From contig CALVSO010000002.1 of the NCBI GenBank assembly GCA_944359055.1, forward strand, positions 5,935 through 69,934: a stretch of 64,000 nt of DNA. The letters run 5' to 3'. The notes under the pieces are model-generated. The model made no database searches. It was not told where the DNA came from and saw only the letters and a program-made list of their open reading frames with translations. Position numbers and translations under genes: made by a program. This DNA is from an uncultured Bacilli bacterium. GTDB lineage: Bacteria; Bacillota_I; Bacilli_A; RF39; UBA660. Below, one piece after another: positions 3,572-39,654 of the stretch (its first letter is position 1; the number at the start of each line of letters is the position of its first letter).

Positions 3572-4924
3572 ATGCAAGAAAAAACTATACCTCATAGTAT
3601 TGAAGCTGAACAAGCGGTCTTAGGATCGATGTTTTTAACTAAATATGCTTTACAAAAAGGTATTGAAAGTTTAAATGAAAATTTATTTTATTTAGATAGT
3701 CATAGTAAAATATTTTCAGTTATAAGAGATTTAGCTGAAGCAAATAAACCAATAGATATAATGACCGTTAGTGAAGAATTAAAAAGAAGGAATTGGTTAA
3801 ATACTATTGGTGGTATTGAATATTTAACTACTGTTGCTAGAAGTGTTCCTACTGCTGCTAATATAGAAGAATATATTAAAATAGTTGAAGAAAAAGCTAT
3901 TTTAAGAAGATTAATAGATGAAGCTACTAATATAGTAACAGATGCTTATAATTCAAATAATAGTATTAATGATATTTTAGATAATGCTGAAACAAAAATA
4001 TTAAATGTTGTTAAAACAAGAAAAGGTACAGAATTTAGAAGTATTCAAGATGTTTTATTTAAAACACAAGCAGATTTAGAAAAAATATCTAAAAATAAAG
4101 GTGAAATGACTGGTATTTCCACAGGTTTTTATAAATTAGATAAAATTACTTCTGGATTACATCCTCATGAACTAATTATTATAGCAGCTCGTCCTGGTAT
4201 GGGTAAAACTGCTTTCGCACTTAACCTTGCTACTAACATAGCTATGAATGGTAAAACTGTTGCCTTATTTAATATGGAAATGAGTGCAGAACAATTAGTA
4301 ATGAGAATGTTAGCTTCAGTTGGACAAATATTTGGTGACAAATTAAAAAGTGGTAATTTAAAAAATGAAGATTGGAAACGAATAAATGAAGCTATTAGTA
4401 GATTAGCTGAAACTAAAATGTATATCGATGATACATCAGGTATGACAATTAGTGAAATAAGAGCCAAATGTCGTAGATTAGCCTCTATGAAAGATGGATT
4501 AGATATTATTATCATCGATTATTTACAGTTAATTCAAGGTTCGGATAGATATAAAGGAAACAGAGTTCAAGAAGTAACTGAAATATCTAGAAGTTTAAAA
4601 ACTTTAGCAATGGAATTAAAAGTTCCAGTTATTGCGTTATCTCAATTATCAAGAAGTGTTGAAGGAAAAGGAAGAAAAGATAATAGACCAATATTAAGTG
4701 ATTTAAGGGAATCTGGTTCTATTGAACAAGATGCTGATATTGTTGCTATGCTCCATCGCGAAGACTATTATGATAGAGAAGCTAGAATCGATGAAAATAC
4801 AAGTAGAACAACATTAATTATTGCTAAGCATCGTAATGGACCTGTAACAGATATCCCACTTATTTTTAAAACTAATACTAGTACATTTAATTCAGTTGAT
4901 GAAAGTATGGAAGGTGACGTATGA
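3572..4924 (+). CDS. dnaB: Replicative DNA helicase (DnaB family; DnaC in Bacillus nomenclature)
   Basis: N-terminal IPHSIEAEQAVLGSM, Walker A ARPGMGKT, 450 aa. Confidence 0.92.
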   Translation: MQEKTIPHSIEAEQAVLGSMFLTKYALQKGIESLNENLFYLDSHSKIFSVIRDLAEANKPIDIMTVSEELKRRNWLNTIGGIEYLTTVARSVPTAANIEEYIKIVEEKAILRRLIDEATNIVTDAYNSNNSINDILDNAETKILNVVKTRKGTEFRSIQDVLFKTQADLEKISKNKGEMTGISTGFYKLDKITSGLHPHELIIIAARPGMGKTAFALNLATNIAMNGKTVALFNMEMSAEQLVMRMLASVGQIFGDKLKSGNLKNEDWKRINEAISRLAETKMYIDDTSGMTISEIRAKCRRLASMKDGLDIIIIDYLQLIQGSDRYKGNRVQEVTEISRSLKTLAMELKVPVIALSQLSRSVEGKGRKDNRPILSDLRESGSIEQDADIVAMLHREDYYDREARIDENTSRTTLIIAKHRNGPVTDIPLIFKTNTSTFNSVDESMEGDV

Positions 4925-6525
4925 AAAAAATAGGATCGATAGTAATAAGTTTAATATTAGGAATAATTTTATTTTTCTTTTGTTTTGGATATAGTAAGAA
5001 TAATTACCCTAATGTATTATATAATGTTTATTTAGATGGTGAATATTTAGGTACAATTGATTCAAAAGAAAAATTACAAAATTACATTGATGAAAATACC
5101 GAACATTTAATTAATATAAAAGATATTACTAAAACATATTGTGAAGATGAAAAAAAATTAGAAGAAATTATTAAAGATGAAGAAATAAAAGAATTAATGG
5201 ATAATAGTAAAGATATTAAGTACTATGAAAAAGATAATAAAAAATGTATGGACATTATAATTGAAGATGGTGAAACAATTGAAAAAATATATTCACCTAA
5301 CGGATTAAACATTGAAAAAGTTTTAACTTATAATGGTGAATTAATTAACATAGAAGATATTTATTCAAAGATTATTGATTTAAAATCTTTCACAGTTAAA
5401 GGATATCAATTTACTGTTAATAATGAAGATAAAAATGAATATTTATATGTTACAAATAAAAGCATTTTTGAAGAAGCTGTAAATTCTTTAATTTCAACTT
5501 ATGTTGGTAAAGATGATTATAAAGCTTATTTAGAAGATAATCAATTGAAAATAGAAACAGTTGGATCTTTAATTGAGAATGTTTATATTGAAGAAAATAT
5601 TACTGTTAAGGAAACTCAAATATCAATAGATAATAAAATTTTTACTAATAGTGATGAATTAACACAATTCTTATTGTATGGTAATAATCCAATTACTACA
5701 ACATATAAAGTAAAAGAAAATGAAATGATTGAAGATATAGCGCGTAATAATAAAATCAGTAATCAAGAGTTTTTAATATCAAATCCTAAATATCGTGATG
5801 AAAATAGTTTGATTTCTGAAGGGACAGAAGTTTTAATTAAAGAAACTAATCCTCAATTGAGTGTTGTAGTTGAGAAATATATTGTTGAAGACAAAGTTAG
5901 TGAATTTAAAACTATTTATCAATATGATGAAAATGAGTTGTTAGGATATGAAAAAACAATTCAAGAAGGAGAAAATGGATTAGAAAGAATTAGTCAAAAA
6001 CAAAAGATTGTTAATGGTGATATTGCTTTCGTTGAACCTGTTGGCAAAGAAATATTAAAAAATAAAGTTGATGAAATTGTTATAAAAGGTGAAAAAAGAA
6101 TTCCTAATGTCGGAGATTTAAGTAATTGGGAATGGCCTAGTGAAAGTGGTTGGGTAATTTCAACAAATTATGCTTGGCGTATTCAACCAATTACTGGTGA
6201 ACGTGAATTCCATGCTGCTTTAGATATCGCTGGTACCGGATATAATTCTCCAGTTTATTCTGCTAATAATGGAACAGTAATTACAAAAGAATATCGTTAT
6301 GATTTTGGTAATTATATTGTAGTAAATCATAATAATGGTTACTATACTTTATATGCTCATATGAATAAATTTATGGATGGCGTTAATGTTGGAGATACTG
6401 TTGCCCGTGGTCAACAAATTGGTTATGTAGGTACTACTGGATATTCAACAGGACCTCACATTCACTTTGAAGTATGGAAAGATTGCAAATATTGTAGAAT
6501 CAATCCATGGAGTATATACGAATGA
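4921..6525 (+). CDS. Membrane-anchored M23 family metallopeptidase with a LysM-like domain
   Basis: N-terminal TM helix. C-terminal HAALDIAG...HIHFEV M23 motifs. LysM-like segment IEDIARNNKISNQEFLISNP. Confidence 0.75.
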   Translation: MKKIGSIVISLILGIILFFFCFGYSKNNYPNVLYNVYLDGEYLGTIDSKEKLQNYIDENTEHLINIKDITKTYCEDEKKLEEIIKDEEIKELMDNSKDIKYYEKDNKKCMDIIIEDGETIEKIYSPNGLNIEKVLTYNGELINIEDIYSKIIDLKSFTVKGYQFTVNNEDKNEYLYVTNKSIFEEAVNSLISTYVGKDDYKAYLEDNQLKIETVGSLIENVYIEENITVKETQISIDNKIFTNSDELTQFLLYGNNPITTTYKVKENEMIEDIARNNKISNQEFLISNPKYRDENSLISEGTEVLIKETNPQLSVVVEKYIVEDKVSEFKTIYQYDENELLGYEKTIQEGENGLERISQKQKIVNGDIAFVEPVGKEILKNKVDEIVIKGEKRIPNVGDLSNWEWPSESGWVISTNYAWRIQPITGEREFHAALDIAGTGYNSPVYSANNGTVITKEYRYDFGNYIVVNHNNGYYTLYAHMNKFMDGVNVGDTVARGQQIGYVGTTGYSTGPHIHFEVWKDCKYCRINPWSIYE

Positions 6526-7262
6526 AAGTATCAGTTTTAGCTTCGGGTTCTAAAGGAAATTCAACGTATATAGAAACTAATAATACAAAAGTATTGATAG
6601 ATGCTGGAATGAGTAATTTATATATTGAAAAAAAATTAATATTATTGGGAGTAAATCCTGATGATATTAATTTTGTCTTCATAACTCATACTCATACGGA
6701 TCATGTTGCAGGATTAAAAGTTTTTATAAAAAAACATCATCCTAAAGTCTTTTTAACATTAGATATGTACAATGAATTAAAAGATATATTAAATGACTAT
6801 GAAATATTAGAATCTGAAATAATATTAAATGATTTAATTGTTGATTATTTCAAAACATCACATGATACTGATTCAGTTGGTTATATATTTAAAAATAATG
6901 ATAAAGAAATTGTTTATGTAACTGATACCGGATATATAAATATTAAGAATTTAAAAAAATTAAATAATAAAGATTTATATATTTTTGAAAGTAATCATGA
7001 TATTGAAATGCTTATGAATAATCCTAATTATCCTTATCAAATTAAGCAAAGAATATTAGGAGATAAAGGTCATTTATCTAATAATCAATGTAAAGAATAT
7101 TTAAATAAAATAATTGGTGATAAAACTAAATATATTGTTTTAGCCCATTTATCTGAACAAAATAATGATCCATCTTTAGCTCTAAATAATTTAAATGATA
7201 TAAAAAATATTAAAATAATGATTGCTACTCAAAATGAAAGTACTGAGTTGATAGAAGTATGA
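6522..7262 (+). CDS. MBL-fold metallo-hydrolase (YycJ/WalJ-like)
   Basis: HTHTDH motif. MKVSVLASGSKGN start overlaps the upstream stop as ATGA; the track used ATG 6507. Followed by rlmH, as in Bacillus. Confidence 0.75.
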   Translation: MKVSVLASGSKGNSTYIETNNTKVLIDAGMSNLYIEKKLILLGVNPDDINFVFITHTHTDHVAGLKVFIKKHHPKVFLTLDMYNELKDILNDYEILESEIILNDLIVDYFKTSHDTDSVGYIFKNNDKEIVYVTDTGYINIKNLKKLNNKDLYIFESNHDIEMLMNNPNYPYQIKQRILGDKGHLSNNQCKEYLNKIIGDKTKYIVLAHLSEQNNDPSLALNNLNDIKNIKIMIATQNESTELIEV

Positions 7263-7690
7263 TAAAAATAATATGTGTCGGAAAATTAAAAGAAAAATAT
7301 TTAGTTGATGCTTGTTTAGAATATACTAAAAGAATAAGTAAATATACTAAAATAGAAATAATTGAATTAAAAGATAGTAATATTAAAGAAGAAAGAGATA
7401 ATATTTTAAAGTATATTAATAAAGAATTTATAATAACTCTTGAAATAGAAGGAAATATGTTAGACTCCCCTACTTTAGCCCGTAAAATAGATAACATATT
7501 TTTAACTAATCCCAATATTACTTTTATAATTGGTGGTTCAGATGGATTGCATGAAGATATAAAAAAAATAAGTAATTATAAATTATCTTTTTCTAATTTA
7601 ACTTTTCCTCATCAATTATTTAGAGTTATGTTATTAGAACAAATATATCGAAGTTTTAAAATTTTAAATAATGAAACTTATCATAAATAA
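7259..7690 (+). CDS. rlmH: 23S rRNA (pseudouridine1915-N3)-methyltransferase RlmH (SPOUT)
   Basis: MIKIICVGKLKEKYL...FIIGGSDG SPOUT signature, 143 aa. Confidence 0.85.
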   Translation: MIKIICVGKLKEKYLVDACLEYTKRISKYTKIEIIELKDSNIKEERDNILKYINKEFIITLEIEGNMLDSPTLARKIDNIFLTNPNITFIIGGSDGLHEDIKKISNYKLSFSNLTFPHQLFRVMLLEQIYRSFKILNNETYHK

Positions 7691-7970: not shown

Positions 7971-8000
7971 TTGCGGACGCAGTCTGCCGTATGATATAAT
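7971..8000 (+). promoter_or_regulatory. Sigma-A type promoter for the kinase operon (TTGCGG-18-TGaTATAAT, extended -10)
   Basis: Hexamers read from the sequence. RBS gaggag lies 8 nt before ATG 8030. Confidence 0.5.
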
Positions 8001-8029
8001 ATTATTATAAAAGGTAGTGAGGAGTAAGT

Positions 8030-10192
8030 ATGAAAAAGAAATTGTGGGGAGTATGGGAACTGGAAGAAAAGATAGGAACCGGTTCTTTTGGGACAGTTTA
8101 TAAAGCTAGGAAAACTGAATTAGGAAAAGATTTTTATGCTGCTATAAAACATATTTCTTTTCCTAAAGATGAGGAAGAATTAGAAGAAATAAAAAGAGAA
8201 GGAAATGTAATTTCTATTGATAGTATAAGAGATTATTATAAAGATACAATTGATGATTTGATAAAAGAAATAGAAATAATGTATGAATTACGTGCTAATA
8301 AGAATATAGTTGATTATCAAGATCATTTAATAATTGAAAAAGAAAATAAATTAGGCTATGATGTTTACATTAGAATGGAATTATTAACTCCTTTAGATAA
8401 ATACATAGAAGGTAATAAAATCGATGAGGAATTAGTAACAAAAATAGGTGTTGATATATGTCAAGCATTAGAAGTATGTAAAACTCATCATTTACTTCAT
8501 CGAGATATCAAACCGGCAAATATCTTTGTTGATGATAATGGTACATTTAAATTAGGTGATTTTGGTGTTGCTAAAAAATTAGAAAAAACAACTCTTAACA
8601 TGAGTAAAAAAGGCACGTTTAATTATATGGCACCTGAGATTTATAAAGGAAAAATTGCTGATATTAGAAGTGATATTTACTCATTAGGAATTGTTATGTA
8701 TCGCTTATTAAATAATAATAAAGCACCTTTTATTGATAAAAATATGACATTAGTTAAAGCATCTGATAATGAAACAGCTTTAATGAAAAGAATGTCTGGA
8801 GAATTAATTCCTCCTATAGAAGGTATAAGTCAAAAACTTCAAACTATAATATATACCGCTTGCAGTTATGACAAAAATAATCGGTATGATGATCCTGATA
8901 TAATGCGAAAAGATTTATTAAAATCAGATGATAAATATGAAAGAAAATTTTCTGATGAGTATGACAAAACAGTATCAATTTATGAAGATTATGATAAAAC
9001 AGTATCGATTTATGATAAAGAAACACCAAATGAAAAAAATATTAAAGCAGATTTATTTATACCTAATAATTCTGATGATGAACTAAGAGATAGAATAAGA
9101 AGAATAATTGAAGAAGAAAGAAATAATGAAAGACCAAAATATGATGTTGAGGTTTATTATGAACAATTAAATAAAAAAATGCCATTATTAAGTTTTTTAT
9201 TATCCTTTGCTTTAGCAATTTTACTATTTGTACCTATATCATATGTGGTAAATTTAACAAATTTAAATTATGATATAATGGATATTATGTATAATAGTGA
9301 ATTGTTTAAAAGTGAAATAGGTATATTAATAGTGTTTTGCTTTATAACTTTAGTAGCATTTTTAATATCTATAACAGGTAAAAAACAATATAAAAATTCT
9401 AAAAAATTATATATTATAAATATGATATTATTAATTATTCAAGCAATTTTATTTTATAATAAAAGATTTAATGTTAATGTATTATATATTTGTTATTTTA
9501 TAATTACATTTATTTTGTATATTCTTCCATATAAATGGAATTTAAAATTAGAACAATTAAAAGTTGAAAAAGATAGTATTGATTATTATAAAGAAAAAAA
9601 TAAAAAATTAAATCAAATTTACAATAAAGAAGAAAAAGTAAATAAAAAAATCTACATATTTATAGGATTACTTTTTGTTGTTTCTATAACATTTGCATTT
9701 TTACCTTTTGAAAGTCAAAGTAATAAAAATTTAAAAGATAATTATGTGAAAATTATAACTGATTATATAAATTTAAGAGATGAACCATCATATTCAGGTG
9801 ACATAATTGGAATAGTTTATCAAGATGAAGTTTATAATATTTTAAGTAGTATAGATTCTAATAAAATTGTTTGGTATGAAATTGAAATGGAAAATGGCAA
9901 AAGAGGATATTTAACTAGTGGCTATAATCATGAATATATAGATGCTATAATAAAAAACAAACAAGTTGATAGGTTAGAGGTTATAAATGATTATATTAAT
10001 GTTAGAGAAGACGCTAATACAACATCTAATAGTTTAGGACAAGTTTATAAAGGAGAACAATATGATATTTTAGAAATAATCAAAGGGGATTATTATTATT
10101 GGTATAAAATATTATACGATGGTAAAGAAGCTTATATAGCTAGCCCAAAAGGTAACGAATATGTAAAATTAATGGGTGATTATAATGATTAG
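8030..10192 (+). CDS. Eukaryotic-like Ser/Thr protein kinase: N-terminal kinase domain, 5 TM helices, two C-terminal SH3b (SH3_3) domains
   Basis: Hanks motifs: GTGSFGTVYKA...AIK (ATP site), HRDIKPANIFV (catalytic loop), DFG and APE. Hydrophobic helices in aa ~385-545. Two copies of the NVR-x-PS-G...WYEI SH3b pattern. Confidence 0.85.
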   Translation: MKKKLWGVWELEEKIGTGSFGTVYKARKTELGKDFYAAIKHISFPKDEEELEEIKREGNVISIDSIRDYYKDTIDDLIKEIEIMYELRANKNIVDYQDHLIIEKENKLGYDVYIRMELLTPLDKYIEGNKIDEELVTKIGVDICQALEVCKTHHLLHRDIKPANIFVDDNGTFKLGDFGVAKKLEKTTLNMSKKGTFNYMAPEIYKGKIADIRSDIYSLGIVMYRLLNNNKAPFIDKNMTLVKASDNETALMKRMSGELIPPIEGISQKLQTIIYTACSYDKNNRYDDPDIMRKDLLKSDDKYERKFSDEYDKTVSIYEDYDKTVSIYDKETPNEKNIKADLFIPNNSDDELRDRIRRIIEEERNNERPKYDVEVYYEQLNKKMPLLSFLLSFALAILLFVPISYVVNLTNLNYDIMDIMYNSELFKSEIGILIVFCFITLVAFLISITGKKQYKNSKKLYIINMILLIIQAILFYNKRFNVNVLYICYFIITFILYILPYKWNLKLEQLKVEKDSIDYYKEKNKKLNQIYNKEEKVNKKIYIFIGLLFVVSITFAFLPFESQSNKNLKDNYVKIITDYINLRDEPSYSGDIIGIVYQDEVYNILSSIDSNKIVWYEIEMENGKRGYLTSGYNHEYIDAIIKNKQVDRLEVINDYINVREDANTTSNSLGQVYKGEQYDILEIIKGDYYYWYKILYDGKEAYIASPKGNEYVKLMGDYND
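8960..9019 (+). repeat. Tandem 30-nt repeat (2 copies) encoding YDKTVSIYED / YDKTVSIYDK in the kinase juxtamembrane linker
   Basis: Direct repeat read from the sequence. Confidence 0.6.
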
Positions 10193-10874
10193 AAAATGTT
10201 ATTTCGTAAGTAATAAAGGTAATAGAATAAATAATGAAGATAAATTTCAAATCAATAATTTTTCATCTGTTGGCAAAGATGAAATGGGTAAAAAAATAAT
10301 CTTAAATAATGCTTTAATTACTGTAAGTGATGGCATGGGTGGCGAAGAATATGGAGAACTTGCTTCGTTAATTGTTACTAAAGAATTAGCTAGATTATAT
10401 AATAAAAAATTAAATACTAAAAAAATGTTAGAAAATATAATTAATACTAATAATTTAGTCGTTTCAAAAATGAATGAAAAAAAATGTAGGATTGGGGCAA
10501 CATTAGTAAGTGCAATTATTAAAAAAAATACTATTGATATCTACAACGTTGGTGATAGTAGAGCTTATTTATATTCTAATAAATTGATTCAACTAACAAA
10601 AGATCATGCTACTAATAATGGACTAACGCAACATATGGGAATGAATGTAGAAGATGGAGTAATAGAACCTTTTGTTATTGAAAATATAAGTATTAAAAAG
10701 AATGATTATTTATTGTTATGTAGTGATGGTCTTTATAATATGGTAAATAATGAAGAAATTGAAAAAATATTAAATTCAAAACAAAAAGAAATGAATAAAT
10801 GCCAAAATTTTTTAGATTGTGCTTTAAAAAATGGTGGAAAGGATAATATTACATTTTTATTAATAAAGTTTTAG
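10185..10874 (+). CDS. PP2C-family Ser/Thr protein phosphatase
   Basis: VSDGMGG and CSDGL motifs, about 230 aa. Overlaps the kinase 3' end. ATG 10185 preferred over the GTG 10176 used by the track. Confidence 0.8.
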   Translation: MIRKCYFVSNKGNRINNEDKFQINNFSSVGKDEMGKKIILNNALITVSDGMGGEEYGELASLIVTKELARLYNKKLNTKKMLENIINTNNLVVSKMNEKKCRIGATLVSAIIKKNTIDIYNVGDSRAYLYSNKLIQLTKDHATNNGLTQHMGMNVEDGVIEPFVIENISIKKNDYLLLCSDGLYNMVNNEEIEKILNSKQKEMNKCQNFLDCALKNGGKDNITFLLIKF

Positions 10875-10883
10875 GTGGTATAT

Positions 10884-13217
10884 ATGGATGAATACGAAAA
10901 AACAGTCAGTTGTTATGAAGATAAAAAAATTAAGATAGAAAGTAATGAATCATTTTATTTAACAATTATAAATGATGATAAAATTGAAACTTATAATCTA
11001 AATGATTTTAATTCTTCTCAAATAACTTTTGGAAGAAAAGATGATAATGATATTGTTATCGATTCAATGTTGATATCTGGTCATCATGGTTATTTTAATA
11101 TAGTTGATGATGAAATATATATTATTGATGATAACAGTACTAATGGAATATTTTATAATGGTAAAACAATAAAAGAGCAAAAACTTTCTGATCGTGATAT
11201 TTTTAAAATTGATAATCCTAAAGAGCCCTTAAATAAAGGGGTTATGTTTATTTTGTCTTTAAATGAAAAAAAAGTAAATTGGGATTCTTATGATTTAAGT
11301 AAAAAAGAAACTATAACAATAGGAAGAGATAATTCATGTGATATTGTTTTAAGACATGTTGGTGTTTCTAAAAAACATGCGATTATAACGAAAAAAGATA
11401 ATAAATATTTTATTAAAGATAATGATAGTACTAATAATACTTCAGTTAATGGTGAAATAATAAGTAATCAAATTAAATTAAAAGAAAAAGATGTAATATT
11501 AATTACTAATTCATTATTTATCTATTCATTTGGAAGACTTATTTATCAAACTTTTAATGAAGGTGTAAAAGTTGAAGCATATGATATTGTAAAAACAGTT
11601 GCTACTAAAGGTGGAACTAAAGATATTTTAAAACATATTAGTTTAGAGATTAAACCTTCTAATTTTGTTGCCTTAGTAGGAGGGTCTGGTGCTGGTAAGA
11701 GTACTTTCATGAATAGTATTAGTGGTTTTTCTAAACCAACAAGTGGTAATGTGTTAGTTAATGGTGTTGATTTATATGATAATTATTCAGTATTAAAAAA
11801 TATAATTGGATATGTTCCTCAACAGGATATAGTTTATACAAATCTAAGACTTTATGATATGTTAAAATATGCTGCTGATTTAAGGATGCCTGAAGACTCA
11901 ACTGATGAGGAAAAGGAAATCCAAATAGCTAAAGTTTTAGATATAGTAGATTTAACAGAACATAAAGATACTTATATAAGAAAATTATCAGGTGGTCAAA
12001 GAAAACGAGCAAGTATAGCGGTAGAATTGATAGCAGATCCAACTTTATTTTTCTTAGATGAACCAACAAGTGGTTTGGATCCTGGTACTGAAAGAAGTAT
12101 TATGAAAACACTAAAAAACATGTCTGAATCAGGAAAAACTGTAATATTAGTTACTCATACAACATTGAATTTGCACTTATGTGATATGGTTGTTTTTATA
12201 GGTCGTGGTGGTAAATTATGTTTTGCTGGAAAACCAAATGATGCGTTAAAATTTTTTGGAGTATCTGATTTTGTTGATATTTATACATATATAAACAATG
12301 ATTCAGATAGTTGGAATAGTAAGTTTTTAAATTCAGAGTATTATAATCCTGTTTTTGAAAAACAAACTGAAAGAGTAGATGATACTACTAATGTTAATAA
12401 AAAATCTTTTATAAAACAATTTATTACTTTAACAACAAGATATTTAAAATTAATAATAAATGATAAACAACGATTAGCGCTTCTTTTATTACAAGCTCCA
12501 ATTATTTCATTTTTATTAAGTTTAGTTACTAATAGTGGTGTTTTTAAAAATTATGATGATACAAAAGCAATATTATTTTCTTTATCATGTTCTTGTATTT
12601 GGTTAGGAATTTTAAATTCAATTCAAGAAATATGCAAGGAAAAAGTTATTTTAAAAAAAGAATATATGGCTGATTTGAAGTTATCGTCATATATATGTTC
12701 CAAATTAATTGTCCAGTCTTTATTAGCATTTATTCAATCATTTATATTAATAACTGTTTATGCTATGTTAGTTGAATTTCCATCGGAAAGTTTAATAATA
12801 AATCCTTATTTTGATTTTTTAATTATTTCAACAATAACAATTATTTCTGCAGCAAGTTTAGGAATATTAATATCTAGTATTGTCAAAGATGCAAATATAG
12901 CAATGTCAGTTGCTCCATTAATTTTAGTTCCACAATTATTATTTTCTGGAATGTTATTTGAACTTAAAGATTTTTCTTCTTTTATTTCTAATTTTGTATT
13001 ATGTAGATTTAGTGTTTCAGCTTTGGGTACCACTTTAGATTTAAATAACATGCCTAATAAGATTTTTGTATTAGGATTTGTAAGAGAAGCCGAAGATTAT
13101 TTTAATTATACTTCTAGTCATTATTTTATTATGCTATTAGTATTACTTGGTATGAGTTTATTAATGATAATTGGTTCATATATAGTTTTAAGAAAAGAGT
13201 TAGATAATAGAAAATAA
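10884..13217 (+). CDS. ABC exporter with two N-terminal FHA domains, an ABC ATPase domain and a 6-TM ABC-2 permease (Rv1747-like architecture)
   Basis: FHA signatures: ITFGRK...GHHGYF...STNGIFYNG and ITIGRD...VSKKHA...STNNTSVNG. Walker A GGSGAGKST, signature LSGGQRKRASIA, Walker B LFFLDEPTSGLD, six C-terminal TM helices. ATG 10884 behind RBS aggtgg; the track used GTG 10875. Confidence 0.85.
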   Translation: MDEYEKTVSCYEDKKIKIESNESFYLTIINDDKIETYNLNDFNSSQITFGRKDDNDIVIDSMLISGHHGYFNIVDDEIYIIDDNSTNGIFYNGKTIKEQKLSDRDIFKIDNPKEPLNKGVMFILSLNEKKVNWDSYDLSKKETITIGRDNSCDIVLRHVGVSKKHAIITKKDNKYFIKDNDSTNNTSVNGEIISNQIKLKEKDVILITNSLFIYSFGRLIYQTFNEGVKVEAYDIVKTVATKGGTKDILKHISLEIKPSNFVALVGGSGAGKSTFMNSISGFSKPTSGNVLVNGVDLYDNYSVLKNIIGYVPQQDIVYTNLRLYDMLKYAADLRMPEDSTDEEKEIQIAKVLDIVDLTEHKDTYIRKLSGGQRKRASIAVELIADPTLFFLDEPTSGLDPGTERSIMKTLKNMSESGKTVILVTHTTLNLHLCDMVVFIGRGGKLCFAGKPNDALKFFGVSDFVDIYTYINNDSDSWNSKFLNSEYYNPVFEKQTERVDDTTNVNKKSFIKQFITLTTRYLKLIINDKQRLALLLLQAPIISFLLSLVTNSGVFKNYDDTKAILFSLSCSCIWLGILNSIQEICKEKVILKKEYMADLKLSSYICSKLIVQSLLAFIQSFILITVYAMLVEFPSESLIINPYFDFLIISTITIISAASLGILISSIVKDANIAMSVAPLILVPQLLFSGMLFELKDFSSFISNFVLCRFSVSALGTTLDLNNMPNKIFVLGFVREAEDYFNYTSSHYFIMLLVLLGMSLLMIIGSYIVLRKELDNRK

Positions 13218-13241
13218 ATTGTAAGAAATTACAATTTTTTT
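13217..13241 (+). terminator. Intrinsic terminator after the FHA-ABC gene
   Basis: aattgtaa-gaaa-ttacaatt hairpin followed by a T7 run. Confidence 0.6.
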
Positions 13242-13299: not shown

Positions 13300-14124
13300 A
13301 TGTCAAAGTTTTATACAGCAAAATATGAATCAGTTTTTATGTATTCAGCAGTAAAACATCCAAAAATATTAAAAAAATTAATTGAACAAATATTAAATAA
13401 AAAATATAATGAATTTATTGTATTAAATCCTAATTTAATAAAAGATAATATACATAATATAGGTCAGAAATTAGATTTATTAATTAAAGCAAATGATGAA
13501 TATATAAATGTAGAATTAAATTCTAAATATAACAAATACATAAAAGAAAGAAATTTATTATATGTATTTAAGTTATGTTTGGATAAAAGTGAAAAAGATA
13601 AACAAACATTAAAGGGTAATGTTAGGCAAATAAATATAAATTTTGGAAGAAAAAGTAAAGGAATAGAAGATATAGCGGTAGTAAATTTAACTGATAATAA
13701 AAAATTGACAACAAAAATAGAAATAAAGAATTTAAATGTAGACTTTTATACAAAAAAATATTATAATAATTATAAGTTAACAAAAGAAGAAGAGTTATAT
13801 ACTATGTTAGGATTAGCATTAGAAGAACTAGAAAAATTAAGTGAAAGGAATGATATAGTGAAAGAATTTAAAGAAAGTGTAGAAGAAGCTAATAAAGATG
13901 AATTAGTAGTAAAATGGTTTACTCCAGAACAAGAACGAGAAATGCGAGAAAATTATATAAAAAGTGAAGCTGAAGAAAAAGGTATGAAAAAAGGAATAAA
14001 AAAAGGTAAATTAGAAGGAATATTGCAAACTGCTAAAAATATGCTAGAAGCAAACATGAATATTGAAACAGTATCAAAATTAACTGGTTTATCTGTAAAG
14101 AAAATAAAAGATATGTTACTATAA
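13300..14124 (+). CDS. Rpn family recombination-promoting nuclease / putative transposase (PD-(D/E)XK, YhgA-like)
   Basis: N-terminal FMYSAVKHPKILKKLIEQIL...LDLLIKANDEYINVELNS core. C-terminal KGMKKGIKKGKLEGILQ...ETVSKLTGLSVKKIKDML tail typical of the family. Strong RBS aggagg. Confidence 0.6.
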   Translation: MSKFYTAKYESVFMYSAVKHPKILKKLIEQILNKKYNEFIVLNPNLIKDNIHNIGQKLDLLIKANDEYINVELNSKYNKYIKERNLLYVFKLCLDKSEKDKQTLKGNVRQININFGRKSKGIEDIAVVNLTDNKKLTTKIEIKNLNVDFYTKKYYNNYKLTKEEELYTMLGLALEELEKLSERNDIVKEFKESVEEANKDELVVKWFTPEQEREMRENYIKSEAEEKGMKKGIKKGKLEGILQTAKNMLEANMNIETVSKLTGLSVKKIKDMLL

Positions 14125-16964: not shown

Positions 16965-17004
16965 ATTTATAAATAAATAATCAATATTAATTTAGGTGAT
17001 AAAA

Positions 17005-17523
17005 ATGAAAAAATTAATATTGATTATTTTTTTAATTATTTTGTTTTATGAATGTATAGGGCATGTGTCTAGTTTAGCTATTCCTGATGATGCTTTAAGA
17101 ATTAGAGTTATTGCTAATAGTAATTCAGAGTATGATCAAGAAATCAAAAAAATAGTAAAAGAAAATATTCAATATAAAATGTATGAACTATTAAAAAATA
17201 CTAAAGGTGTAGATGAAGCAAGAAGAATTATTAATAATAATTTAGATAATATTGAAGATGATGTTAAAACTACTTTACAATTATTAGATTATGAATTAGG
17301 ATATGATATTAATTTTGGATTAAATTACTTTCCTAGTAAAGAATATAAAGGAATTACTTATGATGAAGGTTATTATGAGTCATTAGTTATTACATTAGGA
17401 GAAGGTAAAGGTGATAATTGGTGGTGTGTTTTATTCCCTCCTTTATGTTTATTAGAAGCAGAAGAAAGTACTGAGGTAGAATATACTTCATTTGTAAAAG
17501 AACTACTAGATAAATATTTATAA
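17005..17523 (+). CDS. spoIIR: Stage II sporulation protein R (SpoIIR)-like signalling protein
   Basis: Signal/TM N-terminus. LRIRVIANSNSEYDQEIKKIVKE and GDNWWCVLFPPLC match conserved SpoIIR blocks. ATG 17005 behind RBS aggtga. Confidence 0.65.
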   Translation: MKKLILIIFLIILFYECIGHVSSLAIPDDALRIRVIANSNSEYDQEIKKIVKENIQYKMYELLKNTKGVDEARRIINNNLDNIEDDVKTTLQLLDYELGYDINFGLNYFPSKEYKGITYDEGYYESLVITLGEGKGDNWWCVLFPPLCLLEAEESTEVEYTSFVKELLDKYL

Positions 17524-17553
17524 ATTATGCTATAATGTATTTAGGGTGGTAAT

Positions 17554-20055
17554 ATGATTCGAGAAGTAGAAAATGGAATAACAAAAATTGATGATAGAGT
17601 AATTGAGAACAATCAAATAAAAAGTGTAAAAATACCAGAAAGTGTAGTAGAGATAGGTAAATGTGAATTTAGTACTAAGAGAATAACGAAAGTGGAAATA
17701 GCAGAAGGTGTAACAAAAATTGGACCCTGGGCATTTGCGAACAATTTAATAACAAGCATAAGAATACCAGGAAGCGTAGTCGAAATAGGCGAAAGTGCAT
17801 TTAGACGTAATAAAATAACGAAAGTAGAGATAGCAGAAGGTGTAACAAAAATTAGATCCCTAGCATTTGAGGACAATCAAATAACAAGTGTAATAATACC
17901 AGAAAGTGTAGTTGAAATAGGCAGGAGTGCATTTGAGAATAATCAAATAACAAGCGTAATAATACCAAGAAGCGTAGTTGAAATAGGCGAAAGTGCATTT
18001 AAGCACAATCAAATAACAAGCGTAATAATACCAGAAAGCGTAGCCAAAATAGGTTATAGTGCATTTGATCACAATCAAATAACAAGTGTAATAATACCAG
18101 AAAGCGTAGTCGAAATAGGTGAATTTGCATTTAGAAACAATCAAATAACAAATGTAAAAATACCAGGAAGTGTAGCCAAAATAGGGTATGGTGCATTTAT
18201 GGGTAATCAAATAACAAGTGTAATAATACCAGAAAGCGTAGTCGAAATAGGTGAATTTGCATTTGAGAATAATCAAATAAAAAGTGTAAAAATACCAGAA
18301 AGCGTAGTCAAAATAGGCAAAAATGCCTTTTGTAATAATCAAATATCGGAAATAGAAATAGCAGAAGGTGTAATCGAAATAGGCTTTCTTGCATTTTTTG
18401 ATAATCAAATAACAAGCGTAAGAATACCAGAAAGCGTAGCTAAAATAGGCAAAAGTGCATTTGCTCACAATCCGTTAACAAATATTTATCTTCCTAAAAA
18501 GATATCAACAGTTTCTATGAGTTCATTTGATGATTGTAATTTAAAAGAAATGACTTTTTACAGTACATTAAAAAACATATCAAGTGATTACAATTATTCC
18601 GATAATAGTTTTCGTGAAATAGAAGAAATTACAATAATAGAAGCGGATTATAAATATTTAACTTATTTTGAAGAAAAAATGTTAGGATTTTTTCCTAATG
18701 TAAAAAAAATAAATTTAAAAAATTTCTTGGTAGATTTATTTGATGTAAAAGAGGTGAATTTTTCAAATCCAAATGTAAAAATAAATATTCAAAACGTTAT
18801 TATAGATAATAGCGGTGTAAAAAATATAACAAATAAATTTAACTTATCTCAAGAAACTTTAGAATTAATTATGCAAATTTATGAAGCAATCAATTTATTT
18901 CCTGTCAAAAAACAAATAGAAGCGGCTTTCATTTTAAAAGAGATAATTAATAACTATGAAAAAAATATTTCTAAGAATGAACCTCAATTTGATTTAAAGC
19001 AAACCTCAAACTTTTCATTAGAAGTTGATAATAAAGATTTAAAAAGTATAGAAATTCAAATGATTGTTTCTCTTCAATCTTTGCTTTATAATTTGAATAG
19101 CCAAAGTCAATCCATAAAAGATTTAGAAAAACTAAAAAAATATATTAATATATTGAAAGAACTAGAAGAACCTGATAATGATATTGAAAATAAGATAAAA
19201 AAAATTTTAGAAATTTCTAAAAAACTAAATTTTGAAAAAAGTAGTGACTACTTAAAAGATTTGATTTCTAAAACTGAACAAGAAATTGTATCTTCGATTA
19301 ATTTTGATTTGTCGATAAAATTAGTATATACAGATTGTATTTTAGAATTGGAAAATAAAATTAATAATATGTATGAAAAATATAGTCAAATATGGAAAAA
19401 AATCAAACCATATTTCGAATTGAAAGAACAGTTAACTAAAGGTGATTTTGCCAACATTAAGGAAATTAAAAATGTCTTAAATAGGTTAGACAGTTTCACG
19501 AAAAACAAATATGACAAAATTTTAAATAAATTAGAAGAAGACTTTATTACAAAAATTAATGATTGTATAGAAATAACAAAAAATAATAAGGAAGCTGATT
19601 CGATTAATGAATTGAAAACGGAATTTAAAAATCAATTAAATCCAATTTTGGTTGAACTAAAAGAAGATGCTTTGAAATATGAAAGAAATGGTAAATTATT
19701 GAATGAGCTTAAGCAATCTTTAAATATATTAAAAAACGAAAATGTAGATGAAGTCGATGGCTCTATATATGAAACAGTTGTTGATATTAAAGGATTAACT
19801 CAAAATTTAAATAAAAATGAAAGAGAACAAACAAATTTAGAAGTAGAAAATATTATTATTAAATGGTTAAAAATTGTACAAGAAAATAATTACGGGGAAT
19901 TAGTAAAAAAATATAAAGAAGAAAGACCTGATTTAGAAATATCTAATTCTATATTAATAGTTCACTTAATAATATTAGATGATTTATTAAAAGTAAAAGA
20001 TTATATTAATTCATATTTAGAAAATAAAAAAGAATATGATAGTTTTAAAAAATAG
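17554..20055 (+). CDS. BspA-type leucine-rich repeat (LRR_5) protein with a long K/E/N-rich coiled-coil C-terminal half. No signal peptide.
   Basis: About 14 tandem 22-aa repeats I[TK]SVxIPESVVEIGxxAFxxNQ, then about 520 aa of low-complexity helical sequence. Confidence 0.75.
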   Translation: MIREVENGITKIDDRVIENNQIKSVKIPESVVEIGKCEFSTKRITKVEIAEGVTKIGPWAFANNLITSIRIPGSVVEIGESAFRRNKITKVEIAEGVTKIRSLAFEDNQITSVIIPESVVEIGRSAFENNQITSVIIPRSVVEIGESAFKHNQITSVIIPESVAKIGYSAFDHNQITSVIIPESVVEIGEFAFRNNQITNVKIPGSVAKIGYGAFMGNQITSVIIPESVVEIGEFAFENNQIKSVKIPESVVKIGKNAFCNNQISEIEIAEGVIEIGFLAFFDNQITSVRIPESVAKIGKSAFAHNPLTNIYLPKKISTVSMSSFDDCNLKEMTFYSTLKNISSDYNYSDNSFREIEEITIIEADYKYLTYFEEKMLGFFPNVKKINLKNFLVDLFDVKEVNFSNPNVKINIQNVIIDNSGVKNITNKFNLSQETLELIMQIYEAINLFPVKKQIEAAFILKEIINNYEKNISKNEPQFDLKQTSNFSLEVDNKDLKSIEIQMIVSLQSLLYNLNSQSQSIKDLEKLKKYINILKELEEPDNDIENKIKKILEISKKLNFEKSSDYLKDLISKTEQEIVSSINFDLSIKLVYTDCILELENKINNMYEKYSQIWKKIKPYFELKEQLTKGDFANIKEIKNVLNRLDSFTKNKYDKILNKLEEDFITKINDCIEITKNNKEADSINELKTEFKNQLNPILVELKEDALKYERNGKLLNELKQSLNILKNENVDEVDGSIYETVVDIKGLTQNLNKNEREQTNLEVENIIIKWLKIVQENNYGELVKKYKEERPDLEISNSILIVHLIILDDLLKVKDYINSYLENKKEYDSFKK
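17605..18481 (+). repeat. Array of about 14 near-identical 66-nt tandem repeats encoding the LRR units
   Basis: Visible nucleotide-level periodicity (ataacaagygtaataataccagaaagcgtagtygaaatagg...). It generates spurious antisense ORFs. Confidence 0.8.
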
Positions 20056-33995: not shown

Positions 33996-34103
33996 AATAT
34001 GTCTTTTTTTGTAAAATTAGGCCACATATTAGATGAAATAAGGCTGTTATTTATAATAACATTTTTCTTTTTGAAAAAAATTAATAAAAATGCAAAAAAA
34101 CGC

Positions 34104-34132
34104 TTGATTTTCATATATTTTTATTGTATAAT
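34104..34132 (+). promoter_or_regulatory. S10 operon promoter (TTGATT-17-TATAAT)
   Basis: Read from the sequence. Confidence 0.5.
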
Positions 34133-34262
34133 TTTGAATGTGTGACTGCGGTGATGTGCAAGGTTGCCGATACACCAGGTTAAGTTGAAAATAATTTAAA
34201 AGGTAAATCGGGTTATTTGCTCGGAGCGAGTCTATACGTGATATAGGCGAAGGGAGGATATT
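34133..34262 (+). promoter_or_regulatory. GC-enriched structured 5' leader of the S10 operon (candidate r-protein autoregulatory element)
   Basis: Local GC far above background (gtgtgactgcggtgatgtgcaaggttgccgatacaccagg...gctcggagcgagtc), with several short complementary segments. Confidence 0.3.
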
Positions 34263-34571
34263 ATGTCTAAAGAAAAAATTCGTATTAGGTTGAAAGCATT
34301 TGAACACAAATCATTAGATAAGGCTTGTGCGAAAATAGTTGAAACAGTTAAAAGAACTGGTGGAGAAGTTTCAGGACCAATTCCACTACCAACTGAAATC
34401 GAAAAAATTACTATCTTAAGAGCTGTTCACAAAGACAAAGATAGTCGTGAACAATTCGAAAAAAGAACACACAAAAGACTAATTGATATCAAAAACCCAA
34501 GTAAGGAAACTATTGAGGCATTAACTCATTTAGATATTCCAAGTGGTGTTGATATTCAAATTAAAATGTAG
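34263..34571 (+). CDS. rpsJ: 30S ribosomal protein S10
   Basis: [14 protein letters not shown]... Confidence 0.95.
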
Positions 34572-34583
34572 GAGGAGAAAAAT

Positions 34584-35318
34584 ATGAAAGGAATCTTAGG
34601 TCGTAAAATTGGAATGACGCAAGTATTTACAAAATCTAATAAAGTAGTTCCAGTAACAGTTATTTCTGTAGAACCAAATGTGGTAACACAAATTAAGACT
34701 AAAGAAAATGATGGTTACGAAGCAATCCAATTAGGTTTTGATACAAAACGTGAAAAGTTAGCGACAAAAGCTTCAGTTGGACATACCAACAAAGCAAACA
34801 CTACACCTAAGCGCTTCTTTAAAGAAATTAGAGGTGTAGATATTAACAATTATTCTTTAGGTCAAGAAATCAAAGCTGATATTTTTGAAGCAGGAGAAGT
34901 TGTTGATGTAACAGGAACTACTAAAGGTAAAGGGTTCCAAGGTGTTATTAAAAGACACAATCAATCAAGAGGACCAATGGGACATGGTTCACATTATCAC
35001 AGAAAACCAGGTTCAATGGGTACAATGAGACCAATGCGTGTTTTCAAAGGTAAAAAATTACCAGGACACATGGGTACATTAACTGTAACAATTCAAAACT
35101 TAGAAATCGTTGCTGTTGATTTAGAAAATAACTGTATTTTAGTAAAAGGAAACGTTCCAGGAGCTAAAGATAGTTTAGTAATTATTAAATCTGCTGTTAA
35201 AGCAAACGGTAAAGTTAATCCAAGTGATGAATTAGTATCTTATGAAGAAGTTGTAATGGCTGAAGATACAACAGAAAAAGCAGAATTAGAACCTGCCGCT
35301 GAAAGCGAGGAGGCATAA
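34584..35318 (+). CDS. rplC: 50S ribosomal protein L3 (with an acidic C-terminal extension)
   Basis: [15 protein letters not shown]. Confidence 0.95.
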
Positions 35319-35319
35319 T

Positions 35320-35937
35320 ATGGAAAAATTACAAGTATTAAATACTAAAGGTGAAAAAGTTAGCGATATCAAATTAAACAAAGAAATTTGGGGAATTGAA
35401 CCAAATGACGCTGTTTTATATGATGCATTAAGATTAGCTAGAAATAACTTTAGACAAGGTACTGCTGATACTAAAACAAGAAGTGAAGTATCAGGTGGAG
35501 GTAGAAAACCTTGGAGACAAAAAGGTACAGGTAGAGCTAGACAAGGATCAACTAGAGCTCCACATTGGCCAGGAGGTGGCGTAGTATTTGGACCACATCC
35601 AAGAAGTTATGCTATCAAAATGAATAGAAAAGAACGTCGTTTAGCTTTAAAATCAGCTTTAGCTTATAAAGCAATTGAAAGCAAATTAATCGTTTTAGAT
35701 AAATTAGAAGTATCTAATAAAACAAAAGATTTCAAAGAAATTTTAAAATCATTAAACTTAACTAAAAAAGTTTTAGTAGTTGTAGATGAATTAACAGATG
35801 AATTAGTATTAAGTTCAAGAAACTTAAATAATGTATTATTATTAAGTGTTGATGAAGTAAATACTTACGATGTTGTTTATGCAGATACAATGGTAATTAC
35901 TGAAAAAGCAGTTAAGAAATTAGAGGAGGTGCTTTAA
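35320..35937 (+). CDS. rplD: 50S ribosomal protein L4
   Basis: GGGRKPWRQKGTGRARQGS. Confidence 0.95.
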   Translation: MEKLQVLNTKGEKVSDIKLNKEIWGIEPNDAVLYDALRLARNNFRQGTADTKTRSEVSGGGRKPWRQKGTGRARQGSTRAPHWPGGGVVFGPHPRSYAIKMNRKERRLALKSALAYKAIESKLIVLDKLEVSNKTKDFKEILKSLNLTKKVLVVVDELTDELVLSSRNLNNVLLLSVDEVNTYDVVYADTMVITEKAVKKLEEVL

Positions 35938-36215
35938 TGCAAAACTATAGAGATATTATTAAAGGCCCAATCATGACTGAAAAATCAAATGATTTAGCTC
36001 AAAAAAATATAGTAACATTAAGCGTTGATCCAAAAGCTAACAAAATACAAATTAAACAAGCTGTTGAAAAAGTTTTCAATGTTAAAGTTGAAAGTGTAAA
36101 TACTGTAACAGTAAGACCAAGAAAAAAAAGAGTTGGTAAATATACTGGTTACACAAACAAAGTTAAAAAAGCTATTGTTAAATTAAAAGATGGAAGTTCA
36201 ATTGAACTAAACTAA
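35937..36215 (+). CDS. rplW: 50S ribosomal protein L23
   Basis: [10 protein letters not shown]. Confidence 0.93.
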
Positions 36216-36228
36216 TAAGGAGGAAACT

Positions 36229-37059
36229 ATGGCAGTTAAAACATATAAAGCAATGACTAATGGAACTCGTGGTATGTCAAAATTAGTTAATGACGAAATC
36301 ACAAAAACAACTCCAGAAAAATCATTGACTATTACCTTAACTAAAAAAGGCGGACGTAATAATCAAGGTAGAATAACTGTTAGACATCGTGGTGGTGGAG
36401 CAAAAAGAAAATATAGAATTATCGATTTCAAAAGAAATAAAGATAATGTTATTGGAACAGTTGCTTCAATCGAATATGATCCAAACAGAACAGCAAATAT
36501 CGCTTTGATTAACTATGCTGATGGTGAAAAAAGATACATAATTGCTCCTAAAGGATTAAAAGTTGGTATGCAAATTGAATCAGGAGAAAATGCTGATATC
36601 AAAGTTGGAAACAACTTACCACTTAGCAAAATTCCAGAAGGAACAATGGTACACAATGTTGAATTAAAAGCTGGTAAAGGTGGACAATTAGCAAGATCAG
36701 CTGGTAGTTCAGTACAAATCTTAGGATTTGAAGGAAAATATGCTTTATTAAGATTAACAAGTGGCGAAGTTAGAAAAGTAATAGCTACTAATAGAGCTAC
36801 AGTTGGTGAAGTAGGAAACGAAGATCACGAATTAGTTAGTATCGGTAAAGCAGGAAGAAAAAGACATATGGGTATTAAACCAACCGTTCGTGGATCAGTT
36901 ATGAACCCTAACGATCACCCACATGGTGGTGGTGAAGGTAGAGCTCCAATCGGTAGAAAAGGTCCAGTTACACCTTGGGGTAAACCAGCACTTGGTTATA
37001 AGACTCGTAAAAATAAAAAAGCTAGCGACAAGTTAATAGTACGTCGTCGTAAAAAATAA
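36229..37059 (+). CDS. rplB: 50S ribosomal protein L2
   Basis: [14 protein letters not shown]. Confidence 0.95.
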
Positions 37060-37076
37060 TTGAAAGGATTGATTAG

Positions 37077-37349
37077 ATGGCAAGAAGTCTAAAAAAAGGT
37101 CCATTCGTTGATGAAAGCTTAATGAAAAAAGTTAAAGCAGTTAACGAAAGTGGGAAAAAAGAAGTTATTAAAACATGGTCTCGCCGTTCAACAATTTTTC
37201 CTGAATTTATTGGACACACATTTGCTGTTCATAATGGTAAAGAATTCATTCCTGTTTATGTAACAGAAGATATGGTTGGACATAAATTAGGTGAATTCGC
37301 ACCAACACGTAAATTTGGTGGACATGGCGATAATAAAGATACTAAATAG
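37077..37349 (+). CDS. rpsS: 30S ribosomal protein S19
   Basis: [12 protein letters not shown]. Confidence 0.95.
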
Positions 37350-37372
37350 TATTAAAGAAGGGAGAGTATCAA

Positions 37373-37708
37373 ATGGAAGCAAGAGCTATCGCTAAAAACG
37401 TAAGAATAGCCCCTCGTAAAGCTCGTTTAGTTATAGATTTAGTTCGTGGCAAAAGTGTAGCAGAAGCAGAAGTAATCTTATCTAATTTAAATAAAGAAGC
37501 TGCAAGACTAATTAAAAAAGTATTAGTATCTGCTACAGCTAATGCTACTAATAATCTAGGATTAAAAGTAGAAGATTTAAAAGTTAAAGAAGCCTACATT
37601 GATGAAGGCTTAGTAATGAAAAGAATGAAATTTGGTTCTCGTGGACATGTAGATCCAATTAAAAAGAGAACAAGCCACATTACAATCGTTGTAAGTGATA
37701 ATAAATAA
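37373..37708 (+). CDS. rplV: 50S ribosomal protein L22
   Basis: [20 protein letters not shown]. Confidence 0.94.
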
Positions 37709-37725
37709 AGAAAGGTGGGAAAAAC

Positions 37726-38406: not shown

Positions 38407-38809
38407 GTATAGACGTCCTCATAGATTACCTTATGATGGATTAGCTAAAGGTAATACAGAATTACACTTTGGTGAATATGGATTACAAGCTATGGAAGGA
38501 GCTTGGATCACACAACAACAAATCGAAGCAGCTCGTGTTGCTATGACTCGTTATATGAAACGTGGAGGAAAAGTATATATCAATATTTTCCCACACTTAT
38601 CATTAACTAGAATACCTCTAGAAACTCGTATGGGTAAAGGTAAAGGTCAACCAGAAATGTGGGTTGCAGTTGTTAAGAAAAACAAAATTTTATTCGAAAT
38701 AACTGGTGTTTCAGAAGAAGTTGCTAGAGAAGCATTAAGACTTGCAATGCACAAATTACCAATTAAATGTAAATTTGTAAAAAAGGATGGTGAAAAACGT
38801 GAAAACTAA
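38381..38809 (+). CDS. rplP: 50S ribosomal protein L16
   Basis: IPKRTKYRR...RMGKGKG. RBS aagggagg. Confidence 0.93.
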
Positions 38810-38993: not shown

Positions 38994-39002
38994 GAGGTAA
39001 CT

Positions 39003-39257: not shown

Positions 39258-39276
39258 TTGATAAGGAGGATTAATT

Positions 39277-39645: not shown

Positions 39646-39654
39646 GAGGAAACT

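Follow-up and report, generated by a model that had tools for sequence, protein, structure and literature searches.

In mycobacteria, the exporter Rv1747 joins two N-terminal FHA domains, an ATP-binding cassette (ABC) ATPase and an ABC-2 membrane domain in a single polypeptide, and its gene forms a two-gene operon, without a phosphatase, with that of the Hanks-type Ser/Thr kinase PknF. PknF phosphorylates Rv1747 at T150 and T208, two threonines that lie between or just before the FHA domains, and regulates it positively; judging from the extents of the FHA constructs used in that work (residues 1-120 and 202-310), the linker that joins the two domains is long, and mycobacterial FHA domains favour a hydrophobic residue at the third position after the phosphothreonine (pT+3) (PMC3138270). 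The cargo suggested for Rv1747 is the phosphatidylinositol mannoside (PIM) glycolipids of the mycobacterial cell envelope (PMC5549992). Here, we describe a related cassette in a 64-kb stretch of contig CALVSO010000002.1 from an uncultured, very AT-rich gut Bacilli bacterium (referred to below as the window), where three intact genes in the same direction, between positions 8030 and 13217 of the forward strand, encode a Hanks-type kinase, a PP2C phosphatase and an FHA-FHA-ABC exporter. Rather than a system of a new kind, the cassette represents the PknF/Rv1747 system of mycobacteria in a Firmicute variant, and among the features that set it apart is a short threonine motif, (D/E)KTVSxY, which occurs in both the kinase and the exporter and, judged from the sequences, probably links the two. 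Our preferred reading, in which we have moderate confidence, is that the three genes constitute a phospho-signalling operon that would control a homodimeric exporter of the ABCG fold through a switch built on this shared motif.

Two other groups of proteins resemble parts of the cassette. In Firmicutes, the PASTA kinase-PP2C pairs PrkC/PrpC, Stk1/Stp1 and PknB/PstP each combine a Hanks kinase, bound to the membrane and equipped with a sensor that binds the wall outside the cell, with a partner PP2C encoded in the same operon, and autophosphorylation of juxtamembrane threonines is known for these kinases. In GarA (Rv1827), a small soluble metabolic regulator, the unstructured extension N-terminal to the FHA domain contains the motif ETTSVF, and the protein is switched off by phosphorylation at this site (PMC5448819, citing Nott et al. 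2009); PDB 2kfu confirms the sequence ...VETTSVFRADF....

A threonine motif common to kinase and exporter

Two copies of (D/E)KTVSxY are found in the juxtamembrane segment of the kinase, DEYDKTVSIYEDYDKTVSIYD, where T314 and T324 are the candidate phospho-sites, and a third stands at the N-terminus of the exporter, which opens with MDEYEKTVSCYED (residues 1-12, MDEYEKTVSCYE) and offers T7 as the equivalent candidate. A six-frame translation of the window yields three matches to the pattern, all of them within these two proteins. Both motif-bearing regions are disordered in AlphaFold2 (AF2) models, with a predicted local distance difference test (pLDDT) score below 50 for residues 302-369 of the kinase and the still lower values given in Table 1 for the exporter tail.

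The motif is a persistent property of this kinase family. All 16 close orthologues (45-96% identity, each with the same succession of catalytic domain, five transmembrane helices and SH3b) carry between one and four tandem copies of (L)(D/E)KTVS(I/V)Y at a spacing of about 10 residues, and T324 and S326 are invariant across them. At the DNA level, the repeats of the present kinase correspond to a tandem repeat of 30 nt (8949-9015; 2.2 copies, 86% match), and two kinases that are 84-96% identical to it (P0121 and P0122) have three copies of the motif as opposed to two, so the repeat number varies among near-identical strains. Further away, Clostridia kinases encoded near FHA-ABC genes bear versions of the type D(R/K)TVSVR(H/K)AP, and in a wider sample of kinases neighbouring FHA-ABC genes the motif was found in 8 of 30 from Firmicutes and in none of 33 from other phyla. 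Relative to non-kinase open reading frames (ORFs), the enrichment is roughly 20-fold.

The closest described parallel to the exporter tail is the GarA/OdhI site, a disordered N-terminal T-(T/V)-S-(V/I)-(F/Y) sequence immediately before an FHA domain (ETTSVF in GarA; KTVSCY and KTVSIY here). By analogy with those proteins, phosphorylation by a Hanks kinase followed by binding to the protein's own FHA domain would be expected here as well, and the resemblance suggests that intramolecular switching in the style of GarA is not confined to Actinobacteria. The differences are that the module continues here into a further FHA domain and an ABC exporter (or, in the sister operons described below, into a Zn-ribbon membrane protein), that the motif is also repeated in the kinase, and that switch behaviour is proposed for the exporter from this likeness. 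The candidate sites also have a hydrophobic residue (I, V or C) at pT+3, the kind that mycobacterial FHA domains favour.

Kinase, phosphatase and exporter beside their described relatives

A sequence-only reading of this DNA had proposed that a Hanks kinase, a PP2C phosphatase and a protein with two FHA domains, a nucleotide-binding domain (NBD) and a six-helix permease are encoded by consecutive genes in the manner of PknF/Rv1747, and in this the Pfam matches, the AF2 models and the intact sequence motifs agree with it. In the exporter, a single ORF contains two FHA stretches (E 6e-33), ABC_tran at residues 252-399 (E 3e-29) and ABC2_membrane at residues 515-703 (E 4e-18), and its AF2 model has a mean pLDDT of 84.9 and a predicted TM-score (pTM) of 0.78. 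Across 45 homologues, the phosphothreonine-binding residues of the two FHA domains are either invariant or conserved to 90% or more. Beyond the FHA domains, the protein is most similar to eukaryotic ABCG transporters, with which it shares the order of NBD before membrane domain, the six helices with an elbow helix and the overall fold: the top Foldseek matches in the PDB are ABCG2, ABCG1, ABCG5/G8 and AtABCG25, with a target-normalised TM-score of ~0.8 at ~22% identity, and the top NCBIfam match is the ABCG/White-type family TIGR00955, at a score under its cut-off. Those proteins lack FHA domains, whereas the present one is bacterial and predicted to be regulated by a kinase.

The similarity to Rv1747 raises the alternative that the cassette is a plain orthologue of the PknF/Rv1747 pair, in which the kinase would phosphorylate threonines between the FHA domains, and binding of these sites by FHA domains, within one molecule or between molecules, would switch on the export of a glycolipid of the cell envelope. 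We consider this unlikely, even though the domain order is the same, a Hanks kinase gene is adjacent in both cases and FHA-1 matches the FHA-2 domain of Rv1747 (PDB 6cah) with an E of 1.5e-6, ahead of the GarA FHA domain at ~1e-4. This FHA-2 domain is the part of Rv1747 that was compared directly; otherwise the exporter is set beside Rv1747 by its published description. The regulatory feature that defines Rv1747 is absent here, because the linker between FHA-1 and FHA-2 consists of ~6 residues (between strands at residues 119-127 and 134-137), is conserved and is ordered (pLDDT 64-83), leaving no room for sites of the T150/T208 type; the candidate acceptor T7 lies instead in the N-terminal tail. 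The phospho-peptides of Rv1747, PPApTTRIPAA and NLApTSMMK, are unlike the motif found here, and the mycobacterial kinase is set apart from the present one by the tandem repeats that match the exporter, the five transmembrane helices and the SH3b domains of the latter. A PP2C belongs to the operon here and not to that of pknF, and PIMs, the cargo proposed in mycobacteria, are to our knowledge not known from Firmicutes. Finally, the solved structure closest to the kinase domain is that of Staphylococcus aureus Stk1/PknB (PDB 4eqm), nearer than any mycobacterial kinase, and PknF is absent from the solved-structure matches at E <= 1e-20. The proposed likeness to PknF/Rv1747 is thus upheld in architecture and kinase linkage only, and fails for the phosphorylated linker and for the type of kinase.

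In the kinase, the Hanks motifs are all intact (GxGxxG at G16-G21, the AIK lysine K40, HRD at H157, DFG at D177 and APE at A201) and invariant in orthologues. In the activation loop, LEKTT, both T187 and T188 are invariant among 18 orthologues, and the local context resembles that of the KTVS motif. As in PrkC and its relatives, the catalytic domain is attached to the membrane and followed by a putative extracellular wall-binding sensor, and the operon includes a partner PP2C. The sensor is of a different make, however: the sequence-only reading was right that the kinase lacks PASTA domains, none being found by Pfam, but it had passed over what stands in their place, namely five transmembrane helices, which match no family in a lenient-E Pfam scan, and two SH3b domains of the SH3_3 family at the C-terminus. 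The odd number of helices would place this C-terminus outside the cell. Most kinase orthologues have one SH3b domain, and the clade to which this kinase belongs has two. The NCBIfam model for the Stk1-PASTA kinases (NF033483) gives 148 bits against a cut-off of 450, over the catalytic region only. A further association of SH3b with the cell wall was seen at a related locus (L086), where a wall hydrolase with Big_2, SH3_3 and Peptidase_M15 domains is encoded on the minus strand (9561-11222) beside an ABC-kinase pair.

The phosphatase is recognised by Pfam as PP2C (E 1e-16; 61.8 bits against a cut-off of 20.3), with the metal-binding motifs SDGMGG, VGDSR, CSDGL and GKDN seen in the sequence and alignments. 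As with the kinase, it scores far under the NCBIfam equivalog cut-off for its PrkC/PrpC-type counterpart (Stp1/IreP, 142 bits against 230). The order of the two genes, kinase before phosphatase, is the reverse of the prpC-prkC pair of Bacillus, as had been noted from the sequence, and varies among related loci. A last difference from the PrkC/PrpC group is that a dedicated FHA effector is encoded alongside.

Sister operons, distribution and the proposed switch

The most informative comparison is with four operons (L087-L090) in which a kinase and a PP2C are followed by a different effector, a protein of 320-360 residues, and in which no ABC transporter is present. This effector consists of an N-terminal EE(L/F)(D/E)(K/R)TVS(I/V)Y motif (MEEE(F/L)(E/D)(K/R)TVS(I/V)Y in all four), one FHA domain, one to three Zn-ribbons, one transmembrane helix and a C-terminal domain of ~110 residues, which is predicted to be extracellular, contains a conserved NLPxKVD...YNSExDQKLR sequence and, in the four proteins, is covered by no Pfam family. 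Over its first 129 residues, our exporter shares 46% identity with the initial 124 of one of these proteins (L088; E 3e-30), and the PP2C is 48% and 43% identical to its sister-operon counterparts, so that by sequence the phosphatases of these operons are orthologous. Two further loci retain the exporter: at L091 the FHA-FHA-ABC protein has the N-terminus ...DDIYEKTVSNY, and at L085 a PP2C gene is followed by an ABC gene whose product starts with MDKFEKTVSSF and then by a kinase with LDRTVSL. Altogether, the effectors that stand beside this kinase family open with the motif in six cases out of six, whether they are FHA-ABC proteins (L085, L091) or of the Zn-ribbon type (L087-L090). Given the similarity of the motif and FHA-1 across effectors and the related PP2Cs, the conserved unit is a kinase, a PP2C and a module of motif plus FHA, to which lineages attach different output domains. 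When this module was compared with 1.84 billion representative proteins, the best 150 of 6140 matches (E <= 1e-3) held no third type of effector, and the motif-initial proteins among them were the FHA and Zn-ribbon family and one fragment only.

The FHA-ABC family as a whole is far from rare, contrary to what the sequence-only reading had implied: it numbers thousands, many of them in Firmicute genomes. At E <= 1e-10, 7998 of 8000 scored candidates were retained, and among the matches listed all 120 had FHA, ABC_tran and ABC2_membrane domains; named examples come from Bacilli and Herbinix metagenome-assembled genomes. Species-representative genomes contain at least 519 relatives, both in Firmicutes (Lachnospiraceae, Acutalibacteraceae, Eubacterium, Blautia, Coprococcus, Faecalicatena contorta, Lutispora) and beyond them (Cyanobacteria, Chloroflexota, Myxococcota, Acidobacteriota and others). 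The flanks, 7 kb to either side, of 80 FHA-ABC loci (30 from Firmicutes and 50 from other phyla) were queried with the present kinase and PP2C. A Hanks kinase was found at 48 of the 80 (20 of the 30 and 28 of the 50, respectively), often adjacent and on the same strand, and kinase linkage is therefore general to the family. PP2C genes flank 15 of the 30 Firmicute loci as opposed to 3 of the 50 others, which makes inclusion of the phosphatase mostly a Firmicute trait. The orders phosphatase-kinase-ABC, kinase-phosphatase-ABC and ABC-kinase all occur. At four Clostridia loci (L009, L010, L050 and L083), a single FHA-ABC gene is surrounded by two or three Hanks kinases, all of which carry a TVSVR-type motif of their own; this suggests that several kinases feed one exporter there.

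On the preferred reading, the operon would work as follows. The kinase would read a cue derived from the cell wall via its extracellular SH3b domains and five-helix module, and would autophosphorylate its activation loop (LEKTT) and the two DKTVSIY repeats at T314 and T324. The phosphorylated repeats would dock onto the FHA domains of the exporter, bringing about phosphorylation of T7 in the EKTVSCY tail, and phospho-T7 would then compete for the pocket of FHA-1 (or FHA-2), either in its own subunit or in the partner subunit of the dimer, in a switch akin to that of GarA/OdhI. Such a switch would free the kinase and shift the FHA module relative to the ATPase, altering transport activity, and the PP2C would reset both phospho-sites. 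As for what is transported, the ABCG fold and the precedent of Rv1747 allow the guess that the cargo might be an envelope lipid, a glycolipid or another amphipathic molecule.

Several points weigh against this scheme. Of 45 diverse, closely related ABC homologues, only 6 have the N-terminal motif, so the cis-switch cannot be the mechanism of the whole family. The assignments of cargo and of SH3b ligand are guesses, and the regulation might be either activating or inhibitory. The AF2 models contain no phosphothreonine, and the contact between tail and FHA domain lies outside them. Lastly, experimental work on FHA-ABC exporters in the literature searched is confined to Rv1747/PknF, with no Firmicute member, as had been surmised for low-GC Firmicutes; these exporters are very common in several phyla, yet all that is known of their mechanism was learned from a single protein of mycobacteria, and the exporter described here does not retain the regulatory linker of that protein. 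Clostridioides difficile CD2148 was considered as a characterised relative and rejected, being monocistronic with no FHA partner mentioned. Where the exporter lacks the motif, the partner kinase can still carry it in the juxtamembrane segment (L005, L014 and L086). Docking on the kinase motif may be the more general step.

The scarcity of the acceptor motif among ABC homologues also counts in favour of a second alternative, in which information flows the other way. Sensing would then fall to the ABC transporter, in the manner of Bce-type flux sensing, and its FHA domains would recruit and modulate the kinase, whose outputs would be other proteins. The docking of FHA domains on multivalent kinase repeats is compatible with either direction. 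We nevertheless judge this arrangement quite improbable, since an orthologous kinase-PP2C pair is also found with a motif-bearing FHA effector that is not a transporter, which better fits a kinase acting on an effector, since the kinase has SH3b sensor domains of its own, and since the window encodes no further protein with the motif.

The sister operons that speak for the phospho-switch also invite a bolder and more tentative generalisation, which we hold with slightly less than even confidence. The sequence (D/E)KTVS(I/V)Y, present both as tandem copies in the juxtamembrane arm of a kinase and at the very N-terminus of the FHA effector encoded next to it, may act as a self-matching address label, and hence as a portable phospho-switch into which different outputs can be plugged; states in which the FHA domain is bound to the kinase would compete with states in which it is bound to its own tail, and the number of repeats (two or three) would tune valency. 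As far as the literature searched shows, such a matching phospho-motif in kinase and effector has not been described previously. It yields concrete predictions of how kinases are addressed to effectors in gut Firmicutes, which concern T7, T314 and T324 and specific FHA residues.

Gene boundaries, expression signals and neighbourhood

The coordinates of the features discussed here are collected in Table 1. The ORFs on the plus strand run from 8030 to 10192, from 10176 or 10185 to 10874 and from 10875 or 10884 to 13217, the last two having alternative starts. The sequence-only reading had taken all three genes to overlap. This is true of the kinase and PP2C genes, which share 8 nt (ATGATTAG), but the ABC gene is separated from the PP2C stop codon by a 9-nt gap, as public gene calls and the N-termini of homologues agree on the ATG at 10884, behind the AGGTGG sequence. 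Public metagenome calls contain identical proteins of 720, 229 and 777 residues in the same gene context, on a 224-kb contig and several others, and the long exporter ORF is thus neither a sequencing artefact nor the product of a frameshift, in accordance with the single four-domain polypeptide originally proposed.

With the 8-nt overlap, the 9-nt gap and a terminator-like hairpin found only 3' of the third gene, the three genes are, by all sequence indications, one operon. The hairpin was overlooked by a consensus terminator scan because its stem has fewer than three G-C pairs. A promoter with an extended -10 element had been assigned to positions 7971-8000, within the 340-nt gap 3' of rlmH; its sequence elements are present, but this AT-rich DNA contains no more promoter-like consensus matches than shuffled sequence does (51 found as against 59 expected), and it stays a candidate. 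Searches with Rfam returned no RNA family at gathering thresholds over the whole 64 kb and nothing credible at E <= 1 in the 340-nt gap upstream of the kinase; a match to a Dianthovirus 3'UTR was rejected at 17.5 bits against a gathering threshold of 100 bits.

Table 1. Features of the cassette and effector genes of the sister operons. Positions are those of the window, except in the last row, where they refer to the loci named.
Feature	Position	Strand	Details
Candidate promoter	7971..8000	+	TTGCGG (7971-7976), 18-nt spacer, extended -10 TGaTATAAT (7992-8000)
Hanks-type Ser/Thr kinase gene	8030..10192	+	720 aa; ribosome-binding site GAGGAG at 8018-8023
Kinase catalytic domain, aa 10-294	8057..8911	+	Pfam Pkinase E 3e-43
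Two juxtamembrane DKTVSIY repeats, aa 312-318 and 322-328; candidate phospho-sites T314, T324	8963..9013	+	Pattern search
Five-helix transmembrane region, aa 389-559	9194..9706	+	Hydropathy and AF2 helices
Two SH3b (SH3_3) domains, ~aa 575-632 and 651-706, predicted extracellular	9752..10147	+	Pfam SH3_3, two stretches, E 1.6e-20
PP2C (PPM) phosphatase gene	10185..10874	+	229 aa; start ATG 10185
FHA-FHA-ABC ATPase-ABC-2 permease gene	10884..13217	+	777 aa; ribosome-binding site AGGTGG at 10873-10878
Disordered N-terminal tail with DEYEKTVSCYE; candidate phospho-site T7 (nt 10902-10904)	10887..10919	+	pLDDT < 40 for aa 1-20
FHA-1, aa 23-127	10950..11264	+	G50-R51, S65-x-x-H68, N87-G88 conserved
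FHA-2, aa 134-223	11283..11552	+	G147-R148, S162-x-x-H165, N189 conserved
ABC nucleotide-binding domain	11571..12329	+	Walker A 266-273, Q-loop 312-313, LSGGQ 368-372, Walker B 388-393
ABC-2/ABCG-type membrane domain, elbow helix and 6 transmembrane helices	12408..13208	+	Pfam, hydrophobic segments, AF2
Terminator-like A/U-rich hairpin, 9 bp, then U7	13216..13241	+	RNA fold -7.1 kcal/mol, z -2.25; directly after ABC stop codon
FHA, Zn-ribbon and transmembrane-helix effector genes	L087:7718-8746, L088:7671-8720, L089:7691-8767, L090:4185-5153

In the public contigs, the order of genes around the cassette is DnaB, an M23/G5 peptidase, a metallo-beta-lactamase, RlmH, the cassette, a PD-(D/E)XK family gene, nucleoside salvage genes, CinA and SpoIIR. 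The GC content of the window is ~24% with a uniform skew, and the composition of the cassette matches its surroundings. An anti-phage defence module of the MADS or PD-T4-6 kind, with the ATPase as partner, is effectively refuted: the PADLOC models mad6, PD-T4-6 and mad3 do match the kinase and ATPase domains and a PD-(D/E)XK nuclease-family gene does lie immediately downstream, but the matches are limited to generic catalytic domains, the score with NCBIfam MADS6 is 96 bits where the cut-off is 460, a methyltransferase and the other components of MADS are missing, the third protein is a complete membrane exporter of the ABCG fold, and the genes around the cassette are housekeeping genes, with a composition that the cassette shares.

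Upstream of the cassette, positions 4921-7690 encode an M23/G5(/LysM) peptidoglycan hydrolase, a YycJ-like metallo-beta-lactamase and RlmH, preceded by DnaB, a neighbourhood that resembles the end of the walRK-yycHIJ/rlmH region of Bacillus; the two-component genes are not in view. Directly past the cassette terminator lies the PD-(D/E)XK nuclease-family gene (13300-14124), annotated as a 'transposase' (PDDEXK_2, E 1e-8) and also present in the public contigs, for which no link to the cassette was seen. Further downstream, positions 16996-20055 encode a SpoIIR homologue, which indicates a spore-former, followed by an 833-residue LRR_5 repeat protein. At ~34000-48000, the GC content rises from ~24% to ~30-33%, and the sizes of the ORFs, on which alone this assignment is judged, fit a cluster of ribosomal-protein, SecY, Adk, Map and RpoA genes.

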